Positions 5,313 through 63,695 of a DNA stretch of 64,000 nucleotides are shown piece by piece (the first letter of the stretch is position 1; every line of letters starts with the position of its first letter). The position numbers and the translations under genes are program-made. The DNA is from Eledone cirrhosa (Eukaryota): assembly GCA_964016885.1 (NCBI GenBank), contig OZ024741.1, positions 154,938,001 to 155,002,000 on the forward strand, in the 5' to 3' direction. The notes below the pieces were generated by a model that saw only the letters and a list, made by a program, of their open reading frames with translations, did not search any database and was not told where the DNA came from.

Positions 5313-6891
5313 ATTATCTGGTGGGCACTTAGAAAACTAGGTGTTGATGAATGGCTTGTGGAAGCTATACAAGCCATTTATAAAGAAACAGTCAGCAAGG
5401 TTAGAATTAACAACGAATATAGTGAAGAATTTAGTGTAAAAGTTGGTGTTCATCAAGGCTTTGTCCTTAGCCCCCTCCTATTTATTATTGCCCTTCAGGC
5501 TATAACAGAGGAGTTCAAGACTGGCTGCCCATGGGAACTTCTATACACTGATGATCTAACTCTCATAGCTGAATCAATGTTTGAACAAGAGAAGAAATTC
5601 CAAACATGGAAGCATGGCCTAGAATCAAAAGGCTTTAAAGTTAACTTGTCTAAGACTAAAGTTCTAGTTTGTAGGAAGGAAAATAGGGCACAGGTCCCAT
5701 CTGGGAAATGGCCATGCTCAGTGTGTAGGAAAGGAGTAGGCAGAAACTCCATTTTATGTCCCAAATGCAAAGTATGGGTGCATAAAAGATGTAGTGGGAT
5801 CACAGGTAAGCTAACTAAGAATATAGATTTTATATGTGGCCGGTGCTCTGGTGCAATAAGTAGCAGCAAGTGCCCACAAAATACTAGCTCATTCCATTGC
5901 ACAGATGGTTCTATAGAAATAGTGGACACCTTCCGTTACCTGGGTGAAAAAATCAGCAGTGGGGGAGGGTGCTCTGAAAGTACAGTAGCTAGAGTCAGAA
6001 TGGGATGGAAAAAGTTCAGAAAGCTTATACCACTATTGGCCGATAAAGGGTTCTCTCAAAAAATGAAAGGCAGGCTGTAAGATGCCTGCATACGAACAGC
6101 AATGTTACATGGCAGTGAGCCCTGGGCATTGTGTGCAGAGGATATACGCAGACTGGAGAGAAACGAAGCTTGCATGCTCCGCTGGATGTATAATAGTAAT
6201 ATACGTGAACGGCAAAGCATAAATGAACTAAGGGAGAAATTAGAAATAAGAGGGATCAGATGTTGTTTACTCGAGAGAAGACTACGTTGGTACGGTCACG
6301 TGATGCGCATGAAAGACGACAGCTGTATAAAAAAGTGCAGGGCGATAAAAATAGACGGTAGCCACAGAGTAGGCAGACCCAGAAAAACCTTGGACGACTT
6401 GATAAATTCCGACCTCACACACTTACACCTCTCCAAGACAATGTCACTGGACCAAGATCTTTGGCGCTACACAGTCATACAGAAGACCCGCCTTGCCTAA
6501 GTACAAAGCGAAACCTACAGTCAGTAGGTGCCTCTAACAAAATACACCCCCGTCCCACTACCTCCACCCCATCCACACCATCCCCTCAAATGTGAAGTTA
6601 TGTTGGTACTACAACATCCAGTCTGAAACAAATGAGGTTGTGTAGGTGTCATGACAAAAAAAACACACAGTCCACGCTGTAATGTGGCCATGTAGGTAAC
6701 ACAGTAAAAACCTCCCAGTCCACACTGTAAACGTGGTTGGTGTTAGGAAGGGCATCCAGCCGTAGAAAACCCGCCAGACAGTCCTATACGAGCAGGACAA
6801 CAAATCTTGCCTCAAGTGGGAAAACTCCCACCCAAACCCAGGCAAGCGTGGAAGATGGACGTTAAACGATGATGATGATGATGATGATGAT
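5313..6891 (+). mobile_element. 5'-truncated RTE-clade LINE (RT with PHD insertion, 3'UTR, (GAT)n tail), subfamily 1
   Basis: ORFs 5358-6080 and 6102-6500: GVHQGFVLSPLLF, LLYTDDL, KTKVL, C4HC3 finger, FRYLG, RLRWYGHVMR, GRPRKT; one in-frame stop; ends GGACGTTAAAC(GAT)n. Confidence 0.95.
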
Positions 6892-6924
6892 ATATTTTGG
6901 TTATGTCAACAAAATAAAAATAAT

Positions 6925-13460: not shown

Positions 13461-14130
13461 AATTCAATGGATACACCAATGGTTTCGAGAGATATAGAGC
13501 ATTGCTTATATATACATACATACAAACATACATATATACATATATATGCTCTCTTCAAGACCATTCCCGCTTACTTTCCCCTTGCCCCCACGTCCTTGAT
13601 TCCCTCTTCCTCATCCAACCCAGGCCAGAATGGAAAGATAGATGCATTCTTCAATGTACTGCTAGATGTCACTCATTCTTTTGAAGGCCGCTCTCACAAT
13701 CCAATGCTTACAATCTCTTCCATCTCCCATTGTGGGATTACTTGGTCCCTTGCCAAGCAATATGTACTTTGCCCCCACTCCAATTATTGCCTTTCCTGGC
13801 CTATATTATACTGGGAACGTTTTATCATGGCACCAACACTGGTCATCAGCTCTTGAAATAGACTTACAGTTTCAACTCCTGCGACAGTACTACTGGTCTA
13901 TTTGGAATCACAATGTCTGACAAGATAGTTAAACACTGTTCTAAAGTATTTTAAGATAAAAGAAATGGGAAGAAAACACACACACACTAGCAATATATAT
14001 ATATATATATATATGCCTATACATATACCGTCTCTGCCCACATACCACAACAAAAATATATCGTTTATGTATTTCCGTAGAAAAGGTAAAGGAAAGAAGA
14101 GTGCTCTATGTATAGTACAGAGCTATTTAA

Positions 14131-14328
14131 TTACATAATAAGCAACACAATATAATTATTCCATTACCAAAGGTTTCAGGAAACTAGACGATCCTAACAG
14201 AAACGTCCAGTACGCTCATCAGATTAAATATTTCATCTGATGAGCATCCTGGATGTTTCTGTTAGGATCGTCTAGTTTCCTGAAACCTTTGGTAATGGAA
14301 TAATTATATTGTGTTGTTTATTATGTAA
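14131..14328. repeat. Near-perfect palindrome (about 94-bp arms, 10-nt loop) containing an HHR
   Basis: 14131-14224 is the reverse complement of 14235-14328 with a few mismatches. Confidence 0.9.
14229..14302 (+). ncRNA. Type I hammerhead ribozyme motif with extended stem II
   Basis: Stem I TATTTCAT/ATGGAATA, CTGATGA, stem II CTGGATG..CGTCTAG, GAAA, stem III CC-TTT-GG, UA cleavage site after 14294. Confidence 0.7.
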
Positions 14329-14503
14329 ATATATATATACATGTAATAAATGTAATCCGAGTTTTTCGAATATTGATAATAATATTCGATTCGTTTGCAA
14401 TTATGCAAACAGCCTCTTTTAAGCCATGTCAGTAGAATGAGCCCATCATTCTTGCTCTTGTGTTGGCATGTAAACAGTTAGTAGTTATTATATATATATA
14501 TAT

Positions 14504-16113
14504 ATCATCATCATCATCATCATCATCATCGTTTAACGTCCATGTTCCATGCTTGCATGGGTTTGGACGGGAGTTTTCCCACTTGAGGCAAGAGTGGTTG
14601 TCTTGCTCGCATAGGACTGTCTGGCGGGTTTTCTACAGTTGGATGCCCTTCCTAACACCAACCACATTTACAGTGTGGAGCTGGGAGGTTTTTACCGTGT
14701 TGCCTACACGGCCACATTACAGCGTGGACTGTGTGTTTTTTGTCGTGACACCTACACGATCTCATTTGTTTCGGCCTAGATGTTGTGGCACCAACATAAC
14801 TTTACATTGAAAGGGGCGGTGTGGATGGGGTGGGGCTGGTGGGACGGGGGTGTATTTTGTTAGAGATGCCTACTGACTAGTAGGTTTTACTTTGTATTTA
14901 GGCAAGGCGGGTCTTCTCTATTACTGAGTACCGCCAAAGATCTCGGTCCAGTGACATTGTCTTGGAGAGGTGTAAGTGTGTAAGGTCGGAATTTATCAGG
15001 TCGTCCCAGGTTTTTCTGGGTCTGCCTACTCCGTGGCTACCGTCTATCTTTATTGCCCTGCACTTTTTTATACAGCTGTCGTCTTTCATGCGCATCACGT
15101 GACCATACCAACGTAGCCTTCTCTCGAGTAAACATATTTCTAATTTTTCCCTTAGTTCGTTTATGCTTTGCCGCTCACGTATATTACTATTACACATCCA
15201 GCGGAGCATGCAAGCTTCGTTCCTCTCTAGTCTGCATATATCCTCTGCACACAATGCCCAGGTCTCACTGCCATGCAACATTGCTGTTCGTATGCAGGCA
15301 TCATACAACCTGCCTTTCATTTTTAGGGAGAACCCTTTAGCGGCTAATAGTGGTATAAGCTCTCTGAACTTTTTCCATCCAGTTCTGACTCTAGCTACTG
15401 TACTTTCAGAGCACCCTCCCCCACTGCTGATTTTGTCACCCAGGTAACGGAAGCTGTCCACTATTTCTATAGAACCCTCTGCGCAATTGAAAGAGCTAGT
15501 ATTTTGTGGGCACTTGCTGCTACTTATTGCACCAGAGCACCGGCCACATATAAAATCTATGTTCTTAGTTAGCTTACCTGTGATCCCACTACATCTTTTA
15601 TGCACCCATACTTTGCATTTGGGACATAAAATGGAGTTTCTACCTACGCCTTTCTTACACACTGAGCATGGCCATTTCTCGGAAGGGACTGGCGCCTTAT
15701 TTTCTTTCCTACAAACTAGTACTTTAGTCTTAGCCAGGTTAATTTTAAGGCGTTTGATTCTAGGCCGTGCTTCCATGTTTGGAATTTCTTCTCTAGCTCG
15801 GCCATTGATTCAGCTATGAGCGTTAGATCATCTGCGTATAGGAGTTCCCATGGGGAGCCGGTCTTGAACTCCACTGTTATAGCCTGAAGGGCAATAATAA
15901 ATAGTAGGGGGCTCAGAACAGAGCCCTGATGTACACCAACTTTTACACTAAACTCTTCACTATATTCGTTGTTAATTCTAACCTTGCTGACTGTTTCTTT
16001 ATACATGGCTTGTATAGCTCTCACAAGCCATTCGTCAGCACCTAGTTTTCTAAGAGCCCACCAGATAATGGAACAGGGACTCTGTCGAAGGCTTTCTCCA
16101 AGTCGACAAAAGC
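14504..16113 (-). mobile_element. 5'-truncated RTE LINE with PHD insertion, subfamily 1
   Basis: ORFs 14898-15776 and 15716-16210 (AFVDLEKAFD, LLYADDL, PHD, RWYGHVMR); (CAT)n tail at 14504-14530. Confidence 0.95.
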
Positions 16114-16152
16114 TATATATATAAATATATATAAATATATATATATATATAT

Positions 16153-16197
<45 letters not shown>

Positions 16198-16199
16198 AA

Positions 16200-16420
16200 C
16201 AGATTTCCAAAAGATGGAAACATGAATGGACCTGTTATTTTTCCATTTCCACCCTACTCGTCTCCATAATGTTTCTATCAATTTTTCATTCTATTTTCTG
16301 ATGAAGGATTAGTGTCCGAAACGTTAAGACCCTTTTCCCACTATATCAAGCATAAAACTAATAATATATTTCTTCATTGTTTTGTTTTCTTGCTTTGTTA
16401 TTTCTGTTTGCCTTTTGCAT
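16200..16420 (+). mobile_element. HHR-bearing short element family B, best-preserved copy
   Basis: Lies between (CA)n and (TG)n tracts; homologous to 9030-9240, 21971-22066 (-) and 51520-51720. Confidence 0.7.
16294..16329 (+). ncRNA. Minimal type I hammerhead ribozyme motif
   Basis: TTTT CTGATGA A GGA-TTAGTG-TCC GAAAC GT T AAGA: intact core, palindromic ACGT stem III. Confidence 0.75.
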
Positions 16421-20597: not shown

Positions 20598-20887
20598 TAT
20601 AAAGAAAAATAGATGAAATCGAAAATGCAACTGGAGTCTTATTTAAAAAAAAAAAATATATATATATTTATTTGGTTCCTTTACCGGTTTCGCAGTTCTT
20701 CTGCTTTTCAAAAGGTGAGTTGAGATGGAGGGTCTGTGAGAAAAACCACAGACCCTCCATCTCAACTCACCTTTTGAAAAGCAGAAGAACTGCGAAACCG
20801 GTAAAGGAACCAAATAAATATATATATTTAAAAAAAAAAAAAATAAGACTCCAGTTGCATTTTCGATTTCATCTCTTTTTCTTTATA
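20598..20887. repeat. Palindrome (about 140-bp arms, 8-nt loop) carrying an HHR in each arm
   Basis: Arms are reverse-complementary except for the poly-A run; loop at 20739-20746. Confidence 0.9.
20770..20807 (+). ncRNA. Minimal type I HHR with U3-A8 compensatory core (mirror copy 20678-20715 on -)
   Basis: CCTT TTGAAAA GCAG-AAGAA-CTGC GAAA CCGG TA AAGG. Confidence 0.75.
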
Positions 20888-21005: not shown

Positions 21006-21009
<4 letters not shown>

Positions 21010-21152
21010 GGTTACACAACAGTTAGTTCACCATTCCGAGAACAATTGTTTCACCTTAGCGGATCTTCAGGTCGGAAAGTTTCCGAGCTGAAGATCCGCT
21101 AAGGTGAAACAATTGTTCTCTGTATGGTGAACTAACTGTTGTGTAACCACTT
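21006..21152. repeat. Palindrome (about 72-bp arms) carrying an HHR, inserted in (TA)n
   Basis: AAGTGGTTACAC..GTGTAACCACTT, centre near 21079. Confidence 0.9.
21083..21122 (+). ncRNA. Minimal type I HHR motif
   Basis: CCGAG CTGAAGA TCC-GCTAA-GGT GAAAC AATT GT T CTCTG; the mirror arm gives CTCGG for stem I. Confidence 0.7.
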
Positions 21153-21679
21153 CTACCTAACTCGTCCTTTGGACTGAGTGCTCTACTACTACGGATATTA
21201 CCTTCCAGTGTTCCACCACTATATATATATATATATATATATATATGGTGTCATGAATAAATTCTTTTATTCTTTTACTTGTTGAAGTTAGTAAGCTCTG
21301 GCCACCTTGATTTAGTCAATTATATCAACCCCAGTACTTATTTTTTAAGTCTGGTACCTATTTAATTAACCTTGTTTTTGTCAATCCTCTAAGTTACAAA
21401 ACATAACGAGAGACACTACAAACATCAACATACATGCCTGCCCCGCCTCACTCACACTTAATTTATAATATATATACTGTATATATATATATATAAATAA
21501 TATTATAAGTAATATTATTAATATATACATATATAGTAATAAGAATATTTATATGTATATAATAAAATTTATGTTTAATACAACTATAAATATGGAGGGT
21601 AGTACTAAGTACTAGCCGGTTACCAGTATGACAAAAGGCTCAATGCAAATTTTCAAGTGTTTTACAAAGCCGAGATACA

Positions 21680-21970: not shown

Positions 21971-22066
21971 AAAGGTAAACAGAAATAATAACACAATCAG
22001 TACAGTATATGGAAGGAATATATTAGGTTAACTCTTGAAATAACAGGAAGAGGGTCTTAACATTTA
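21971..22066 (-). mobile_element. Family B element 3' portion, truncated within the HHR
   Basis: Minus strand AAATGTTAAGACCCTCTTCCTG..TATTTCTGTTTACCTTT matches 16320-16415 and 9143-9237. Confidence 0.65.
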
Positions 22067-22092
22067 TATATGTGTGTATATATATATATATA

Positions 22093-23848
22093 TGAAATGC
22101 AGTTCGGGTTTGTGTCAGGCAAAAGTACCACAGACGCTCTTTTCATTGTACGACAACTACAGGAGAAGTACCTAGCTAAAGGTAAACCCCTCTACTTAGC
22201 TTTTGTCGACTTGGAAAAAGCCTTCGACAGAGTCCCCCGCTCCATTATCTGGTGGGCTCTTAGAAAACTAGGGGTTGACGAATGGCTTGTGAGAGCTATA
22301 CAAGCCATGTATAAAGAAACAGTCAGCAAGGTTAGAATTAACAACGAATATAGTGAAGAGTTTAGCGTAAAAGTTGGCGTCCATCAGGGCTCTGTTCTCA
22401 GCCCCCAACTATTTATTATTGCCCTTCAGGCTATAACAGAGGAGTTCAAGACCGGCTGCCCATGGGAACTCCTATACGCAGACGACCTGACACTCATAGC
22501 GGAATCAATGGCCGAGCTAGAGAAGAAATTCCAAACATGGAAGCACGGCCTAGAATCAAAAGGACTTAAAATCAACCTGGCTAAGACTAAAGTTCTAGTT
22601 TGTAGGAAAGAAAATAAGGCGGCGGTCCCTTCTGGGAAATGGTCGTGCTCGGTGTGTAGGAAAGGCATAGGTAGAAACTCCATTTTATGTCCTAAATGCA
22701 AAGTATGGGTGCATAAATGATGTAATGGGATCACAGGTAAGCTAACTAAGAACATAGATTTTACATGTGGCCGGTGCTCTGGTGCAATAAGTAGCAGCAA
22801 GTGCACACAAAATACTAGCTCTTTCAATTGCGCAGAGGGTTCTATAGAAATAGTGGACAGCTTCCGTTACCTGGGTGACAAAATCAGCAGTGGGGGAGGG
22901 TGCTCTGAAAGTACAGTAGCTAGAGTCAGAACTGGTTGGAAAAAGTTCAGAGAGCTTATACCACTATTAGCTGCTAAAGGGTTCTCCCTGAAATTGAAAG
23001 GCAGGTTGTACGATGCCTGCATACGAACAGCAATGTTGCATGGCAGTGAGACCTGGGCATTGTGTGCAGAGGATATACGCAGACTAGAGAGGAATGAAGC
23101 TTGCATGCTCGGCTGGATGTGTAACAGTAATATACGTGAACGGCAAAGCATAAACGAACTAAGGAAAAAATTAGAAATAAGAGGGATCAGATGTTGTTTA
23201 CTCGAGAGAAGGCTACGTTGGTATGGACACGTGATGCGCATGAAAGTCGATAGCTGTATAACAAAGTGCAGGGCAATAAAGATAGACGGTAGCCACGGAA
23301 TAGGCAGACCTAGAAAAACCTGGGACGAGCTGATAAACTCCGACCTCACACACTTACACCTCTCCAAGACAATGTCACTGGACCGAGACCTTTGGCGGTA
23401 CTCAGTAACAGAGAAGACCCGCCTTACCTAAATACATAGTAAAACCTACTACAGCCAGTAGGCATCTCTAACAAAATACCCCCCCCCCCACCCTCCCACC
23501 CCCACCCCCTCCCACCCCCCCACCCCATCCACACCACCCCGTTCTATGTAAAGTTATGTTGGTGCCACACCATCCAGGCCGAAACAAATGAGATCGTGTA
23601 GGTGTCACGACAAAAAAACACACAGTCCACGCTGTAATGTGGCCGTGTAGGCAACACGGTAAAAACCTCCCAGACCCACACTGTAAATGTGGTTGGTGTT
23701 AGGAAGGGCATCCAACTGTAGAAAACCTGCCAGACAGTCCTATGCGAGCAAGACAATCACTCTTGCCTCAAGTGGGACTACCCCCATCCAAACCCATGCA
23801 AGCGTGGAACACGGACGTTAAACGTTGATGATGATGATGATGATGATA
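22093..23848 (+). mobile_element. 5'-truncated RTE LINE with PHD insertion, subfamily 1
   Basis: ORFs 22070-22720 and 22853-23431 (EMQFGF, DLEKAFD, YADD, PHD with one stop, RWYGH); 3'UTR and (GAT)n tail. Confidence 0.95.
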
Positions 23849-23923
23849 TATATATATATATAAACGGAAAAAATGAAACGAAATTTCTTTTCCCACTCTT
23901 AGTACGGATGTTACGTGTACATA

Positions 23924-25010: not shown

Positions 25011-25046
<36 letters not shown>

Positions 25047-25051
<5 letters not shown>

Positions 25052-25243
25052 GAAGGAATTGTGGTAAGGAACCAGATGGACCATAACGCACCAGAGTACT
25101 CAATACTTAGGGTAGTAGAGTGGGTAATGGGAAAAAGTATGACCCCGACGGCAGAGCTCAAGCCGTTTCGACGGCTATTTCTGGACAGTCCAGAAATAGC
25201 CGTCGAAACGGCTTGAGCTCTGCCGTCGGGGTCATACTTTTTC

Positions 25244-25247
<4 letters not shown>
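25047..25247. mobile_element. (TA)n-embedded element ending in a perfect 115-bp palindrome (25130-25244)
   Basis: 57-bp arms with a 1-nt centre at 25187; related copies at 46238-46378 and 23957-24013. Confidence 0.9.
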
Positions 25248-43564: not shown

Positions 43565-43858
43565 ATATTGAAAGAGTGAAGAATAACATGGTCAACAGTA
43601 CACAAAAGGGTTTTATTTACAGTCTGACAATTGTTTCACTGATTAAGTTGTCTAGAAATTGCTGAACACTTGAAGCAGTGCCACTCAATTTTAAATACGT
43701 TGTTAGCTTAACCAGATCATCGGAGATAAATAACTGTTATATGTTCAGTATTTTTACGAATTCAAATTAGACACCTTAATCAGTGAAACAATTGTCAGAC
43801 TGTAAATAAATCCCTTTTTTTGTACTGTTGACCATGTTATTCTTCACTTTTTCAATAT
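43565..43858. repeat. Inverted repeat (about 90-bp arms, about 113-bp spacer) in (TA)n, carrying an HHR
   Basis: 43565-43654 is reverse-complementary to 43768-43858. Confidence 0.9.
43622..43727 (-). ncRNA. Type I HHR motif with CCGAUGA core and about 80-nt stem II
   Basis: Minus strand: ATCT CCGATGA TCTGGTTAAG...CTTAATCAGT GAAAC AATT GTC AGAC. Confidence 0.65.
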
Positions 43859-45185: not shown

Positions 45186-45242
45186 CTGCCTGATGAAATC
45201 ATAGCTGTTGAATAATGGTTATCACTGAAATATATATAGCAG
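45186..45242 (+). ncRNA. Type I HHR motif flanked by a short inverted repeat
   Basis: CTGC CTGATGA AATC ATAGCTGTT-GAAT-AATGGTTAT CACT GAAAT ATAT ATA GCAG; 45139-45160 is inverted at 45261-45282. Confidence 0.7.
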
Positions 45243-45420: not shown

Positions 45421-46237
45421 TATTTTGATGATTTTCAGCAACCTCAAATTCTATGTAAATAAGTTAAATTGTTAAAAAGTAAAATTGTTAAAATAATAAA
45501 TTGTTAAAATGTCTGGAATGATTCTTTTACAATGAAACTATTTTTCTGCATTTACTACATCGTTGTTGGTGTTATTGAAAATATTTCCAACAAACTTTTA
45601 TAATTTGAACTTTTAACACATACATATTGCATATACATATACTCACATGCATGCACACACACACACACATACACACACATGCATACACACACACACATAC
45701 ATGTTTTTTACTGACAATATTTTTTTCTTTCAATCTTACTTCTGATTCTATTTTATTACTCTCTCTCCCTCTCTCATCTTGCCCTCTCTTTTTCTCATTC
45801 AGTCTCTCCTCTCTCTCACTTGCCATCTCCCTCTCTCTCTTCTACTCTAATGTATCCCTATACACAGTCCTCTTATTTGATCTTTTGCTTTCAAAGTATT
45901 CATATCATGTGAGTGGCTGGAAGTACACAAAAATTCAAGAAACTTGTTGAAACTTAACATAATGGAAACTCATTTTATAATGGAGTTGTGAAACAAAAAC
46001 TATACTCTAACTGACACTTAAAACATTTTTAACATCAAAATATTAGAACCTCATAAATATATTCTATACTCATGACAATTTCAAAACCACACCATTTAAA
46101 CATAATGTGTTGATTAGCTGCCTCGACTCATAAATGGGATTTGGATTTTTGTTCATTTCTCAGACATAAAATAGGAGGGTTGACTTATATTTGGATCAAC
46201 TTATATTTAAGTATGTAGAATATATATATTGTATATA

Positions 46238-46378
46238 TAACGAAGGAATTGTGGTAAGGAACCAGATGGACCATAACGCACCAGAGTACTCAATACTTAG
46301 GGTAGTAGAGTGGGTAATAGGAAAAAGTATGACTGCGATGGCAGAGCTCAAGCCGTCGGGGTCATACTTTTTCCTATT
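46238..46378. mobile_element. Copy of the 25047-25247 element with the palindrome centre deleted
   Basis: GAAGGAATTGTGGTAAGGAACCAGATGG.. matches; hairpin collapsed at GCCGT. Confidence 0.9.
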
Positions 46379-46482: not shown

Positions 46483-46716
46483 CCTCATGGAGGATGACTG
46501 GTGGGTAAAGAAGTGCTAAGAAATCCCAGTAGAAGGAAGACACAGTAGAGGAAGACCACGAAAAACATGGGTGGAGGTGGTGAGAGCAGACCTCAGATCG
46601 CTGAAGCTCGTGGAGGAGATGACGATGGACTGTGACAAGTGGAGAGATGCTGTGCTGAATAGGACCCATCCCATCCTTGCAAGCAGGAAAAAGTGGACGT
46701 AAAATGATGATGATGA

Positions 46717-46720
<4 letters not shown>
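46483..46720 (+). mobile_element. 3' end of a third RTE family
   Basis: Reads approximately MEDDWWVKKC*EIPVEGRHSRGRPRKTWVEVVRADL; tail CTTGCAAGCAGGAAAAAGTGGACGTAAAAT(GAT)n. Confidence 0.8.
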
Positions 46721-46782
<62 letters not shown>

Positions 46783-46890
46783 AATTAATATATCTACCGA
46801 CATATGTATACAGATGCATACCTATGCTAGCAGATATATATGTTTTGTCTTAGTAACTTTGTGGTTCTATGCAGGGGAATGCAGAACAAT

Positions 46891-47299
46891 TATATGAAAG
46901 ACGTAAATAAGAAAGTTATGAAAATTGACTTACTTACTAAAATTTCACTCCAACTAATTAGTTTTTGTAAGGGGATAAATATAGTTACGTAATAACTATA
47001 GAGAAGCCTTACGTCATCAGAGAGTCTATTCTCAGCCAAGTTACCAGGCAATGCGGGGACACTGGGAACTTATATAAAAATAATTCAGTGGATGGAAAAA
47101 AGCGAGCGGGGCTAGATTCCAAGCCATTGAAAAATTCACTGCCTTCCTGGTTAGATGAGAATAGACTCCCTGATGACGTAAGGCTTCTCTATAGTTATTA
47201 CGTAACTATATTTATCCCCTTACAGAAACTAATTAGTTGGAGTGAAATTTTAGTAAGTAAGTCAATTTTCATAACTTTCTTATTTACGTCTTTCATATA
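46891..47299. repeat. Inverted repeat (about 143-bp arms, about 122-bp spacer) carrying an HHR in both arms
   Basis: 46891-47033 is reverse-complementary to 47156-47299. Confidence 0.9.
47165..47243 (+). ncRNA. Type I HHR motif with extended stem II
   Basis: ACTCC CTGATGA C GTAAGG..TATAGTTA-TTACG-TAACTATA..CCTTAC A GAAAC TAATTA GT T GGAGT. Confidence 0.8.
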
Positions 47300-49502
47300 T
47301 ATAAATATATATATAACTGATAAACTGAGGACAAGACAACAAACGAAAACAAGGCAGCTTTGAATCCTACCAATGGTACTGCTGGTTTCCACAGGGTCAC
47401 AGCGTCCGACACAAGCCAAAGCGCTGTCCAGTGGAGTAAGAGACAAGACAAAACAATAACTTATAGCAATTAAGCTATAACATGTACACATAGAGTTTTT
47501 ATGTGACATCAGGGAGAAGGCATGTGTGTTTTATAGCATGAAAGTCTCATGAGTGAAACAAAGGAAAAGAAGGAAAGAAAATGGAAAAGGAAGGAGAAAA
47601 AGTCAAGAAGAAAAAAGTAAAATATTGTGATAAAAATGTAAGCCATTGAAATTAGTGTGGGTGGGTGGAGAACACGTTTGTCACAGATTAGTAATGATAA
47701 ACTTAGGAAAATTGTGCATTTGTGTATGTGTGTATGTATGTAATGTTTATATATTCAATTTATATATATACTTATATATACATATATACATATATATATA
47801 TATATGTATATAGCTTTAAAAACTAACAGCACCAGGAACAGAGGCCACCTATGTACAGTGATCATAAGTTAGAAATACAGGAGTGAAAACTAGAGGACAG
47901 TGTGTCAAACATGACAACACTTACACTTGTATTTCTTGATATTTTGAGGTTAATATTCTTTTCAAAATAAAAGAACTGAAGTGTAGTGTTGGTAATGAAT
48001 GGCACTCTACTGCAAAAGATTTTCAAGAGTGAAGTTCTTGTGTAATGCAGAGAGATACATTTATAAAATAACATCTATTTCATTAAAATCTTTTAACATC
48101 CTGAACTGCATGAAACTGCATTAGCAAAACATTCTTGAAAATAACAAAGCCGCACTATGACTGAATCACATTGAAATTTATGTTTATACTCTAATACTAC
48201 AAATTTTCCCAACATACTATCTACAAATAAAATACTATAAACATTGAAATTAAAAAATCTTTTCTGCTAAATCATTACAGAATGCTAAGGCTCATTTAAC
48301 AACCACATATATGCAACTTTATTTGTAGCACTATGATTGCACCATATAAAATATTGACGTCTTTAATGTGATACTGCAAATTTTCACAATGATCTATCAA
48401 CTAGTAAAGATACTACAAACATTTGAATTAACAAACTTGTTTTAGATTCCTTCTATTAAATCATTATACAATGCAAAGTTGTGAAGATTTAAAAGATAGA
48501 GAAGAGGCTACATTGAATATCATTTCATGCAAAATTCTAGTTTTCAAAGATCCAATAAGTCTTTTAATGGCATAACCAAACATTCAGCTGCTGTAAATGG
48601 CATATATTCCCATATCTGCTATCTCACGCAACATAATTGATAGTGTTCTCAATTGACAGAAGATAGCAATGATATCAATCATTATTTAAATGATTCGGCT
48701 TTTAATATGTTAGTGTCCTTTATTCTTTTACTAGTTTCAATGTTTCAGTCATTAGACTGTGGCTATTCTGGGGCACTGCCTCAGAGGAATTTTAGTTGAT
48801 CATATCGATCCTCTAGATACTTTACTCTCTATGTGTACATGTATGTATGTGTGTGCATGTTTGTGCTTACATTTACTTACTGGTTTCATAAAAAGATATC
48901 AATAAACTATGTACCATGACTGGGAAGGAAAAAAGAAATGAAGTATAATGGTTAATATGATTGACTAAAATCCCTTCAAGGCTGTGACCTAGCATGACAA
49001 CAATTTAATAACTGAAGCCAGTAGGGGGAAAAACCCCCAACAGAATAAAGTACTGGCAATATGATCAACCTTTACTTGGCAGTGCTCTAGTATGGCCACA
49101 AACTAATGACTGAAACCAGTAAAACAAAAAGTAAAATAAATAAACTACATTACAAAAATAAAAAAAATGTAAAATACTAAAAACCAATACAGCCCCAATG
49201 TGAAATATAAATATATTTATATTCAGGTCGCATTTTTTAATAAGTTGTTGGGGACTGACATTTCCCTAAATTGCTGTCAGATACATTTAATTCTAATCTT
49301 TTTTGTTTGATTTTATTATTATTATTATTGGGTATTCGAAGAACTGTCAAAAATTAATATTAAGTGGTTGCTTTGAAAAATGGTTATTTCTCACACTGCC
49401 ATAATAATCCTCAGTGTATTCAGTAATGTAACACTAAAGCCCCTCTTGTTTTCCCTGTCTGTCATGGCCACCTCCTCTACTAAAAACTTAAAAGTGCAAA
49501 TA

Positions 49503-61507: not shown

Positions 61508-63695
61508 ATCATCATCACCGTTTTACATCCGTTCTTCCACGCTAGCATGGGTGAGACGGATTGTCCTGTTGTGGGCAGTGTCTGGTCGGCTGACCATGCT
61601 TTGCTCATACAGGAACTGATCTGGCTTGATTTCTACAGCTGGATGCCCTTCCTAACACCAACCTCATTTACAGTGAGTGCTGGGTGCTTTTTCGTGGCGC
61701 CTACACGTCCACTTTACAGTGTGGGCTGGGTGCTTTTTTGCCGTGGCACCTCCACGACCACCTTGCGGTGGGGGGTGTGGGGGCATATTGTCTATATGCT
61801 TCAGCTTGTACCCATGGGAGCTCGGGTACTCTGTATTACTGCGTGACGCCAGAGGTCACGGTCGTGTGTCATTGCCTTTGAGAGGTGTAATTGGGTAAGG
61901 TCGGCTTTTATCACCTCATTCCAGGTCATCTTGGGTCTCCCCACTCCGCGGTTTCCATCGACTTCTAGTGCTCTGCACCTTTTTATGCAGCTGTCATCCT
62001 TCATACGCATCACATGTCCATACCAGCGCAACCGCCTCTCCTGCACACAGCATTTGATTCCTCTTATGCTCAGACTCTCTCTCAATTCATTTATGCTTTG
62101 TCGTTCACGTATATTACTGTTACACATCCATTGGAGCATGCAGGCTTCGTTTCTCTCTAATCTACGTAAGTCTTCCACCTTCAGCGCCCAGGTCTCACTG
62201 CCATGCAACATCGCTGTTCGGATACACGCATCATACAGTCTGCCTTTCATTCTGAGGGAGAAGCCTTTTGCAGCTAGCAGTGGTAGTAGTTCCCTAAACT
62301 TCTTCCATCCCGTTCTTACCCTAGTTATTGTACTTTCTGAACACCCACCTCCGCTGCTAATTCGATCACCTAGGTAGCAGAAGTTGTCTACTGTTTCTAC
62401 AGAGCCCTCCCAGAGATTGGTGGTACTTGTTTCCTGTAGCTGTTTGCTGCTTGCTGTCCCAGCACAGCTGCTGCATGTGAAGCCTACATTCTTAATTAAG
62501 CTTCCTGAGATCCCGCTACATCTCTTGTGTACCCATTGTTTGCATTTGGGGCAGAGAATGGAGTTTCTACCTACACCTTTCCTACATACCGAGCAAGGCC
62601 ATTTCCCTGAGGGGATCTGGGTTCTGTTTTCTCGTCTACTTACAAGGACCTTAGTCTTTGTCATGTTGACTTTGAGACCCTTTCTTTCTAGTCCCTGCTT
62701 CCAAGTTTGGAATTTCTTTTCTAGTTCTATCATAGATTCATCTATAAGTGCAAGGTCATCAGCATACAGGAGTTCCCATGGGCATCCGGTCTTAAACTCC
62801 TCCGTTATTGCCTGCAGGACTATGATGAACAGGAGGGGGCTAAGAACAGAGCCCTGGTGGACCCCAACCTGTACGCTAAATTCCTCGCTATACTCATTGC
62901 TAACCCTAACTTTGCTGACTGCTCCCCTATACATGGCTTGTACCGCTTTCACAAGCCATTCATCAACTCCTAGTTTTCTAAGAGCCCACCAGATTACAGC
63001 ACGTGGAACTCTGTCAAAGGCTTTCTCAAGGTCGACAAATGCCAAGTAGAGTGGCTTACTTTTAGCTAGGTACTTTTCCTGTAACTACCTCACAAGGAAG
63101 AGGGCATCAGTGGTGCCTCTTCCTGGTACAAACCCAAATTGCATCTCGTCTATTTTTACCCGGTCCCTAATCAACTGTGCTATAACTCTTTCTGTTACTT
63201 TCATGACCTGGTCCATCAGCTTTATACCTCTATAGTTTGCTCTATCTAGTGCATCACCTTTACCTTTGTAGCAGTTGACAATGATGCTACTGCACCAATC
63301 TTTTGGTATGACACGTTCTAGTATTACCTGGTTAACAATACGTGTGGTTATAGTGTGACCTACAGACCCAGATGCCTTCAGCATCTCGGCAGCTATACCC
63401 GATGGACCGGTTGCTTTCCCCATCTTCATATGTTTGATTGCCTTACTTACTACGTTGCTGCTGACTTGTACTGCTGGCCCCTCTATAGGGTCTACTTGGA
63501 GTAGGGTCTCTTCTTCCCATGATTCTCCTCATTTAGTAATCTATCATAATGACTCTTCCATGCATCTTTCTTCTCAGCACTTGTGAGGGCAAGCTCACCT
63601 TTATCATTCCGGATACACTTCTCTCCAATGACATCACAACTCTCTCTGACACACTGCCTCGCAATCTTGAACACCTCCTGTTTCTTGTCCTCACG
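61508..63695 (-). mobile_element. RTE LINE subfamily 2, longest copy (RT plus PHD), 5'-truncated at (TA)n
   Basis: ORFs 63492-63701, 63085-63429 and 61801-63045: KATGPSGIAAEMLK, NYRGIKL, QFGFVPGRGTTDA, DLEKAFD, YADD, PHD, FCYLG, RWYGH; few disablements. Confidence 0.95.

Follow-up and report, generated by a model that had tools for sequence, protein, structure and literature searches.

Dimeric hammerhead ribozymes of Penelope-like elements (PLEs) are said to have been described by Lunse et al. in 2017. In the account of PMC4209133 (Cervera and De la Pena 2014), PLE hammerheads have a bulge after A9, a G10.1-C11.1 pair, a larger helix II (>4 bp), a helix I of 4-5 bp and a palindromic helix III; dual hammerheads are found on opposite strands, 100-700 bp apart. 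The same source gives no detectable cleavage for the single minimal motif and low cleavage for dimers, and dimer dependence as well as retrozymes are summarised in PMC6765202 and PMC7229834.

As a comparison set for the insertion itself, we used the EN+ PLEs (the Penelope/Poseidon, Neptune, Nematis and Hydra clades; PMC8557442, PMC3846280, PMC11167929). PMC8557442 and PMC3846280 describe inverted 5'-truncated PLE copies with a one-sided tail of 30-40 bp, microsatellite targets and head-to-head junctions, as well as a TATA box in PLE insertions. According to PMC11167929, reverse transcription has two start sites, both strands are nicked and extended, targets are AT-rich, and catalytic hammerhead mutants still insert in vitro. 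For Octopus vulgaris, PMC13282606 lists 31 recently active Penelope-like families. Among papers judged by title and the start of the abstract, most subscription papers being outside the scope, none deals with such hammerhead motifs in octopus.

Here we analyse a hammerhead motif within an inverted repeat at 46891..47299 of the window, by which we mean the whole 64-kb stretch of Eledone cirrhosa DNA. The locus is very probably a truncated insertion of a high-copy Penelope-like retroelement, of which only the 3' pseudo-LTR (pLTR) with its hammerhead was copied, joined head-to-head.

The inverted repeat and its hammerhead motif

The repeat has two arms of 149 nt each (46891-47039 and 47151-47299) around a spacer of 111 nt. 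The arms are 97% complementary (145 of 149 positions), with exactly four mismatches, at 46965/47225, 47021/47169, 47035/47155 and 47037/47153. Comparison of the arms bears out the preliminary description of a 409-bp inverted repeat; its limits hold for the repeat but not for the element, which is larger and extends leftward to at least 46790 in family reads. We divide the locus as follows.

46719..46779, no strand: (TA)n microsatellite, the probable insertion target, from the sequence and the target bias of PLEs in PMC8557442
46790..46890, minus strand: one-sided 3' extension ("tail", ~100 bp) beyond the left arm only, with unbroken family-level depth; its left boundary is not fixed, as the compared stretch started at 46790
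46891..47039, minus strand: left arm, the 3' pLTR part of the element in its natural context, with hammerhead C3 at 47020 and N17 at 46952
47040..47150, minus strand: spacer, which is element sequence upstream of the hammerhead (5' part of the pLTR), from family reads
47043..47151, no strand: inversion junction with CCTGGT microhomology, from complementarity and spacer shuffles
47151..47299, plus strand: right arm, a 5'-truncated inverted copy without the tail, from the arm comparison and family reads
47156..47252, plus strand: type I hammerhead motif including the stem I extension, from sequence, descriptor, folding and the text of Fig. S3 in PMC4209133
47300..47315, no strand: TA-rich flank at the tail-less end, from the sequence

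The core of a type I hammerhead is intact in the plus arm, with CTGATGA at 47170-47176 and GAAA at 47225-47228. Stem I, the open helix, has 5 bp (47165-69/47239-43), then a 4x4 internal loop and a second set of 5 bp (47156-60/47248-52), and stays within the arm throughout; stem II has 6 bp (47178-83/47218-23), above which come a 6x7 internal loop and a 9-bp hairpin. Helix III is a palindrome of 10 nt, ACTAATTAGT (47228-47237), which would form 3 bp in a monomer and 10 bp in a dimer, and the cleavage triplet is GUU at 47236-38 (NUH). C47177 is bulged after A9, G47178-C47223 is the G10.1-C11.1 pair, and an extra A (A47224) stands directly before GAAA, as it does at the equivalent place in the other arm. 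These findings agree with what had been claimed for the plus arm: the two core elements are present, and so are the 5-bp stem I, the two-tier stem II and the palindromic stem III. The predicted cut lies 3' of U47238 (N17), the position after 47238 that had earlier been proposed from the motif.

In the minus arm, AAAA replaces GAAA (46965, that is, G12A), as previously claimed, and the core there is incomplete. The preliminary description overlooked a C-to-U change in stem I beside the core of this arm, at position 47021. The minus-arm hammerhead is thus predicted to be inactivated by the private G12A at 46965 and weakened at 47021.

A strict hammerhead descriptor matches once in the 64 kb and not at all in 150 Markov-shuffled windows. 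Rfam hammerhead models give no match at gathering score in the whole window or at E<=10 in 46800-47400, and the three matches that the Rfam search did return are at chance level, none of them a hammerhead; the long helix II may explain why no hammerhead match is found.

The motif fits the >80% PLE consensus of PMC4209133 (CUGANGAH-GNNNNN..NNNNNC-GAAAN-palindrome-NUH) at all positions but for one extra base. Like the pLTR hammerheads in that paper, it has CUGANGA with an H bulge, G10.1-C11.1, a 6-bp helix II, a 5-bp helix I, a palindromic helix III, high copy number and a variable loop II, and its two cores lie 150 bp apart from C3 to C3, against the 100-700 bp reported for opposite-strand pairs. 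The Saccoglossus kowalevskii(2) row of Fig. S3 in PMC4209133 has ACUC-CUGAUGA, CCUUAC and GAGUGAA in common with the plus-arm motif. Unlike the hammerheads described there, ours has a longer palindrome (10 nt), a two-tier helix II (45 nt from A9 to C11.1) and the extra A before G12. As far as the text of Fig. S3 goes, in which the column alignment is lost, the Hydra, Adineta(1) and D. willistoni rows appear to have an extra base as well (one cell reads AGAAA), and several PLE rows that retain helix III appear with a base before G12.

As an insertion, the locus resembles the EN+ PLEs of PMC8557442, PMC3846280 and PMC11167929 in its head-to-head inverted 5'-truncated copy, its tail at one end only, its AT/TA-microsatellite target, a TATA-like box upstream in the pLTR and microhomology at the junction. 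It differs from them in the length of the tail (~100 bp rather than 30-40 bp) and in having no ORF. Naiads are unlikely as the clade because canonical hammerheads are absent from them. By Pfam, no RT or GIY-YIG ORF linked to the element is found among the 148 longest of the 322 frames in the window; the matches in these frames are of the RT/PHD LINE type only, none near the element. Taken together, the structural features appear to fit PLE membership except for the tail length and the extra base, and the link to a parent RT-endonuclease ORF is putative.

Two further observations concern the sequence of the arms. In both arms, the loop II hairpin (47190-47210) is a palindrome with a 3-nt interruption, and loose ends in the family carry an uninterrupted or a different palindrome in this hairpin; it is a possible second dimerisation site. 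In addition, GTAAGT, a word resembling a 5' splice site, lies at 47253-47258 on the plus strand, 15 nt past the cleavage site and ahead of a pyrimidine-rich run, with its mirror at 46932-46937 on the minus strand. PLEs are known for introns in their pLTRs. The AG candidate nearest to GTAAGT, at 46868, varies among family reads.

The repeat family in public reads

We compared 46790-47700 at 80% likeness with four of the 11 listed sequencing runs, X1, X9, X4 and X8, of which X4 and X8 are from two other organisms; X2, X3, X5-X7, X10 and X11 were left out of this comparison. The matching pieces are 2539 X1 contigs, 3962 X9 RAD reads, 1 X4 contig and 17 X8 contigs. The summed X1 depth is ~1e5-6.6e5 in most bins of 46790-47316 and 12.7 for the exact flank contig (47465-47700), figures that are evidence of a high-copy repeat and not a copy number. 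Depth is lower (2e3 to 6e4) over some of the left arm and of the spacer, where contigs divide between the two arms or diverge. Family-level depth extends over the tail, both arms and the spacer and falls away sharply past 47316. The motif belongs to a high-copy repeat family. Pattern scans for relatives in metagenome contigs, viral contigs and prokaryote genomes gave no match.

The same reads show which way the element runs. Across the tail (46790..46890) the summed X1 depth is 0.96-2.9e5 and X9 has ~1000-1400 reads, and contigs from X4 (46817-46985) and X8 (46810-46907) cross from the tail into the left arm. On the spacer side, X9 depth rises to ~1500 at 47007-47099, X8 has a homologue, and 9 X1 contigs run past 47151 with other letters. 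Because the family runs past the left arm, through the spacer and beyond 47151, the natural element reads on the minus strand, in the order upstream part (spacer), hammerhead, 3' part and tail. The plus arm is an inverted copy, truncated on its 5' side, that has neither the upstream part nor the tail.

At each of the four mismatches, the family allele is present in one arm and a private allele in the other. The family has G12 at 46965 in 188 of 200 X9 reads and also in X4 and X8, the plus-arm allele at 47021 in 1012 of 1041 X9 reads and at 47037 in 1299 of 1471, and the minus-arm allele at 47155 in 36 of 48; these shares are rough, since reads were assigned to the best-fitting arm and RAD sampling is uneven. 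The left arm holds three of the private changes and the right arm one, as expected if the two arms decayed independently after insertion; the split speaks against an assembly fold-back.

Variation in the family also touches stem II. Of 352 X9 reads, 110 have A instead of C at 47219, and so do 2 of 2 X8 contigs; in X1 and X8 loose ends, the partner position, 47182, is T. The two changes were seen separately and not in one molecule, making the exchange of G47182-C47219 for U-A a probable, unphased compensatory change; they are among the variants listed for the family, which has 223 further ones. The consensus of a subfamily with 242 loose-end reads keeps the C after A9 and differs in stem and loop II, and the loose ends at 47012, 47023 and 47197 indicate that loop II varies strongly between subfamilies.

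We considered whether the sharp molecule ends in X9 are ends of the element and rejected this: the six listed of nine (46891, 46941, 46956, 47085, 47234 and 47264) all coincide with AATT sites and are therefore library cut sites. In X9, allele shares and dips in depth are biased near AATT; at 46891, for example, T>A is found in 247 of 267 X9 reads compared to ~12% of X1 depth.

Predicted folding and likely activity

One alternative for the behaviour of the motif, which we regard as unlikely, is that it is an efficient stand-alone monomeric hammerhead, with loop-loop contacts supplied by the internal loops of stems I and II and not by the spacer. The intact core speaks for this, as do a helix III that can close 3 bp around a tetraloop, the 5 bp, 4x4 loop and 5 bp of stem I and the 6 bp of stem II ahead of its 6x7 loop; the C at 47155 that 36 of 48 X9 reads carry would add a closing C-G pair to stem I. 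However, when 47151-47260 is folded by nearest-neighbour methods, which are blind to tertiary contacts and are to be read with that limit for a monomer, a misfold in which the palindrome invades the core has P 0.87 and stem III has P ~0.11. The hammerhead-constrained share of the ensemble is ~0.009 for this stretch and 0.0006 for 47100-47300, and the fold z-score of 47151-47260 (-1.15) is unremarkable. The strong variation of loop II between subfamilies also weighs against an efficient monomer, and the metazoan PLE hammerheads tested in PMC4209133 are slow.

The preliminary description had ranked the locus as the best candidate for experiment. This is difficult to maintain given a monomer hammerhead share of ~0.001-0.01 and the poor cleavage, even as dimers, of the metazoan PLE hammerheads tested in PMC4209133; that ranking was also made without the Penelope-like context and without the two sister hammerhead pairs in the same window. 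The spacer, proposed as a source of tertiary contacts through its self-complementarity, is indeed self-complementary, but only over a short stretch (CCTGGT at 47146-51 with 47043-48), and it does not suit the proposed role: it corresponds, in antisense, to the upstream part of the element itself, and mispairing with the ribozyme is predicted. In the 47100-47300 transcript this mispairing spans ~14 bp, and P(stem I) drops to 0.07. The arm itself holds the natural candidates for such contacts, namely the 4x4 loop of stem I and the 6x7 loop of stem II. The suggested repair of a C.A pair at the base of stem II to C-G is not supported either. C47177 is the conserved PLE bulge and G47178-C47223 is canonical, so the repair would replace both and move the motif away from the consensus; the odd base is A47224.

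Turning to the dimer, the minimum-energy fold of two identical molecules contains the trans stem I and the 10-bp stem III of a dimeric hammerhead. The energy gain of -9.6 kcal/mol is not above that of shuffled sequences (-8.7 +/- 2.8 kcal/mol; 37 of 100 as good), so energy alone gives no support to dimer use, and we infer it instead from the palindrome and the literature. The motif most likely cleaves slowly and mainly as a dimer; for the parent element, this would probably mean slow cutting of tandem transcripts by a dimer that the 10-nt palindrome holds together.

At the locus itself, a different structure is predicted to prevail. The 409-nt transcript of both arms folds at -262 kcal/mol, and adopting the hammerhead fold costs 105 kcal/mol; a read-through transcript is predicted to form a 149-bp hairpin that excludes the ribozyme. 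Because the two arms would pair in such a transcript, the hammerhead is most likely silent here.

Probable route of insertion and other fold-backs in the window

Several features of the junction and flanks bear on how the insertion arose. CCTGGT at 47146-47151 is complementary to 47043-47048, which adjoins the inner end of the left arm, giving a microhomology of 6 nt; a 5-nt match within 13 nt occurs in 0.8% of 20000 spacer shuffles, in a test devised after the observation. TA tracts are present on both sides, a TA-rich one that contains the right end and (TA)30 facing the tail; no target-site duplication is readable within these tracts. A TATATAA box at 47076-47070 on the minus strand, 50 nt upstream of C3, may be the TATA box of the pLTR, by analogy with the one described in PMC3846280.

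Under the reading that we prefer, a truncated PLE insertion, the GIY-YIG endonuclease of the element would have nicked a (TA)n tract, and reverse transcription would have begun at two RNA sites, one with the tail and one without it. Two cDNAs, or one folding back, would then have been joined head-to-head via the CCTGGT microhomology; fold-back self-priming would leave an identical junction. Afterwards the arms would have mutated independently, and G12A would have killed the minus copy.

A second alternative is that the locus is an inverted piece of a non-autonomous non-LTR retrozyme, an element made of tandem hammerhead repeats of 170-400 nt with a circular RNA. Animal non-LTR retrozymes as described in PMC7229834 and bioRxiv 10.64898/2026.07.22.740005 have, as here, a type I hammerhead with a weak palindromic helix III, and cleavage is dimer-dependent in some. 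Such a motif in a high-copy non-coding animal repeat would suit a retrozyme, and a derivation of retrozymes from pLTRs has been argued (the same bioRxiv paper and PMC7229834). Retrozymes, however, are arranged head-to-tail in tandem, and this locus is head-to-head with a tail. The 64-kb window holds no head-to-tail copy, no back-running joint falls within 46790-47300 among the 15 joints listed of 46, and helices I and II, with 5 bp and 6 bp, are those of PLEs and differ from the canonical pattern (6 and 4 bp, conserved bases in the loops). We therefore consider a retrozyme very unlikely.

Still less probable is a MITE or fold-back DNA transposon in which a hammerhead lies by chance within terminal inverted repeats of 149 bp. 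Long near-perfect inverted repeats, a short spacer and TA flanks are what such an element would show, but only one arm has family sequence (~100 bp) beyond it, and the junction at 47151 is crossed by other copies, so the ends of the repeat are not the ends of the element; moreover, the same one-sided layout recurs in the window with unrelated sequences. An assembly or amplification fold-back artefact is scarcely credible: such repeats are hard to assemble and no piece from the four compared runs spans the whole stretch, but an artefact would copy one arm exactly, and the arms differ at 4 sites with a 3/1 split against the family allele.

Returning to the PLE insertion, we find that the window holds further hammerheads and fold-backs. 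With a relaxed descriptor there are 6 motifs, compared to a mean of 0.36 and a maximum of 2 in 200 shuffles.

14124-14335, both strands: second head-to-head hammerhead pair, of unrelated sequence, with cores at 14237 (plus) and 14222 (minus) and no spacer
21006-21152, both strands: third head-to-head hammerhead pair, of unrelated sequence, with cores at 21088 (plus) and 21070 (minus) and the palindrome ACAATTGT
43565-43858: fold-back whose arms have only the 3' half of a hammerhead (GAAA-CAATTG-TC), with its left end on a TA run
45186-45242: single hammerhead motif, probably decayed, with its core at 45190, helix III ATATATAT and an extra T before GAAA
9122, 16298 and 51599, plus strand: three related minimal hammerhead-like motifs, intact at 16298 (GAAA-CG-TT) and decayed at the others
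20598-20887, 25012-25244 and 46202-46378: fold-backs without a hammerhead core, with one end on (TA)n and a one-sided extension of 60-120 bp

The pair at 14124-14335 has a stem I of up to 8 bp, a helix III of the form ACC-TTT-GGT, an extra T before GAAA and its right end in a TA run. In the region 21006-21219, GAAA is likewise preceded by an extra T, and there are (TA)n tracts on both sides and a 67-bp one-sided extension; its plus core at 21088 is intact, and stems I and II are short. The single motif at 45186-45242 lies 1.6 kb to the left of the 46891..47299 repeat, and two of the fold-backs without a core are 92% identical to each other (25012-25166 and 46202-46356). One end lies <=2 bp from a (TA)4+ run in 7 of the 9 examined fold-backs, which are self-palindromic matches in some of which the arm's own last bases belong to the TA run; 3.9% of other bases lie within 10 bp of such a run.

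The motifs with a long helix III (47170, 14237, 21088 and 45190) all have an extra base before GAAA, and the minimal motif at 16298 does not. At the place equivalent to A47224, three other motif families of the window have an extra T. A MAFFT alignment of 7 motif stretches gives no meaningful match across families and shows only that their primary sequences are unrelated.

The surroundings are AT-microsatellite-rich, repeat-dense, animal-type DNA, and Pfam finds no host exon in the 148 of 322 frames of the window that were covered. The left neighbour of the locus, 46500-46718, is presumably the 3' end of a LINE with a (TGA)n tail, and the right neighbour, 47390-47570, is another repeat family with lower depth. 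LINE-type copies are present at four places.

5313-6895 (plus), 14502-16234 (minus), 22061-23851 (plus) and 61800-63528 (minus): copies in which a PHD finger comes after the RT (Pfam RVT_1 and PHD), putatively RTE-like

These four RT+PHD clusters were considered as parents of the element and rejected, as their RT is of the LINE type, with no GIY-YIG match and no DNA match to the element. The idea of a coding spacer was also rejected: the one overlapping frame covered, 46971-47360 on the plus strand, has no Pfam match, and family reads carry single-base insertions at 47103-47111.

These results show that the locus is real, beyond chance and ordinary, another PLE hammerhead family of known type. 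PLE hammerheads and inverted pairs have been in print since 2014, so it adds just one more family to those described. The catalytic mutants of PLE hammerheads described in PMC11167929 are without effect on insertion in vitro. The 10-nt palindrome, together with loops in both stems, makes the motif a fair test of cleavage as a monomer versus a dimer and of the extra base before G12.

A broader reading, which we think doubtful, is that several PLE families of this genome form a sub-class marked by a long palindromic helix III, loops in stems I and II and an added base ahead of G12, that these are fast ribozymes stabilised by tertiary contacts, and that their insertions supply fold-back dsRNA across the genome. 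If true, the ribozymes of this sub-class would be fast, unlike the slow minimal PLE hammerheads, and the insertions would mostly be tiny head-to-head fold-backs with tails of 60-110 bp, about seven of them in 64 kb. They would be easily mis-annotated as MITEs, and they would provide long dsRNA hairpins genome-wide for A-to-I editing or small-RNA silencing.
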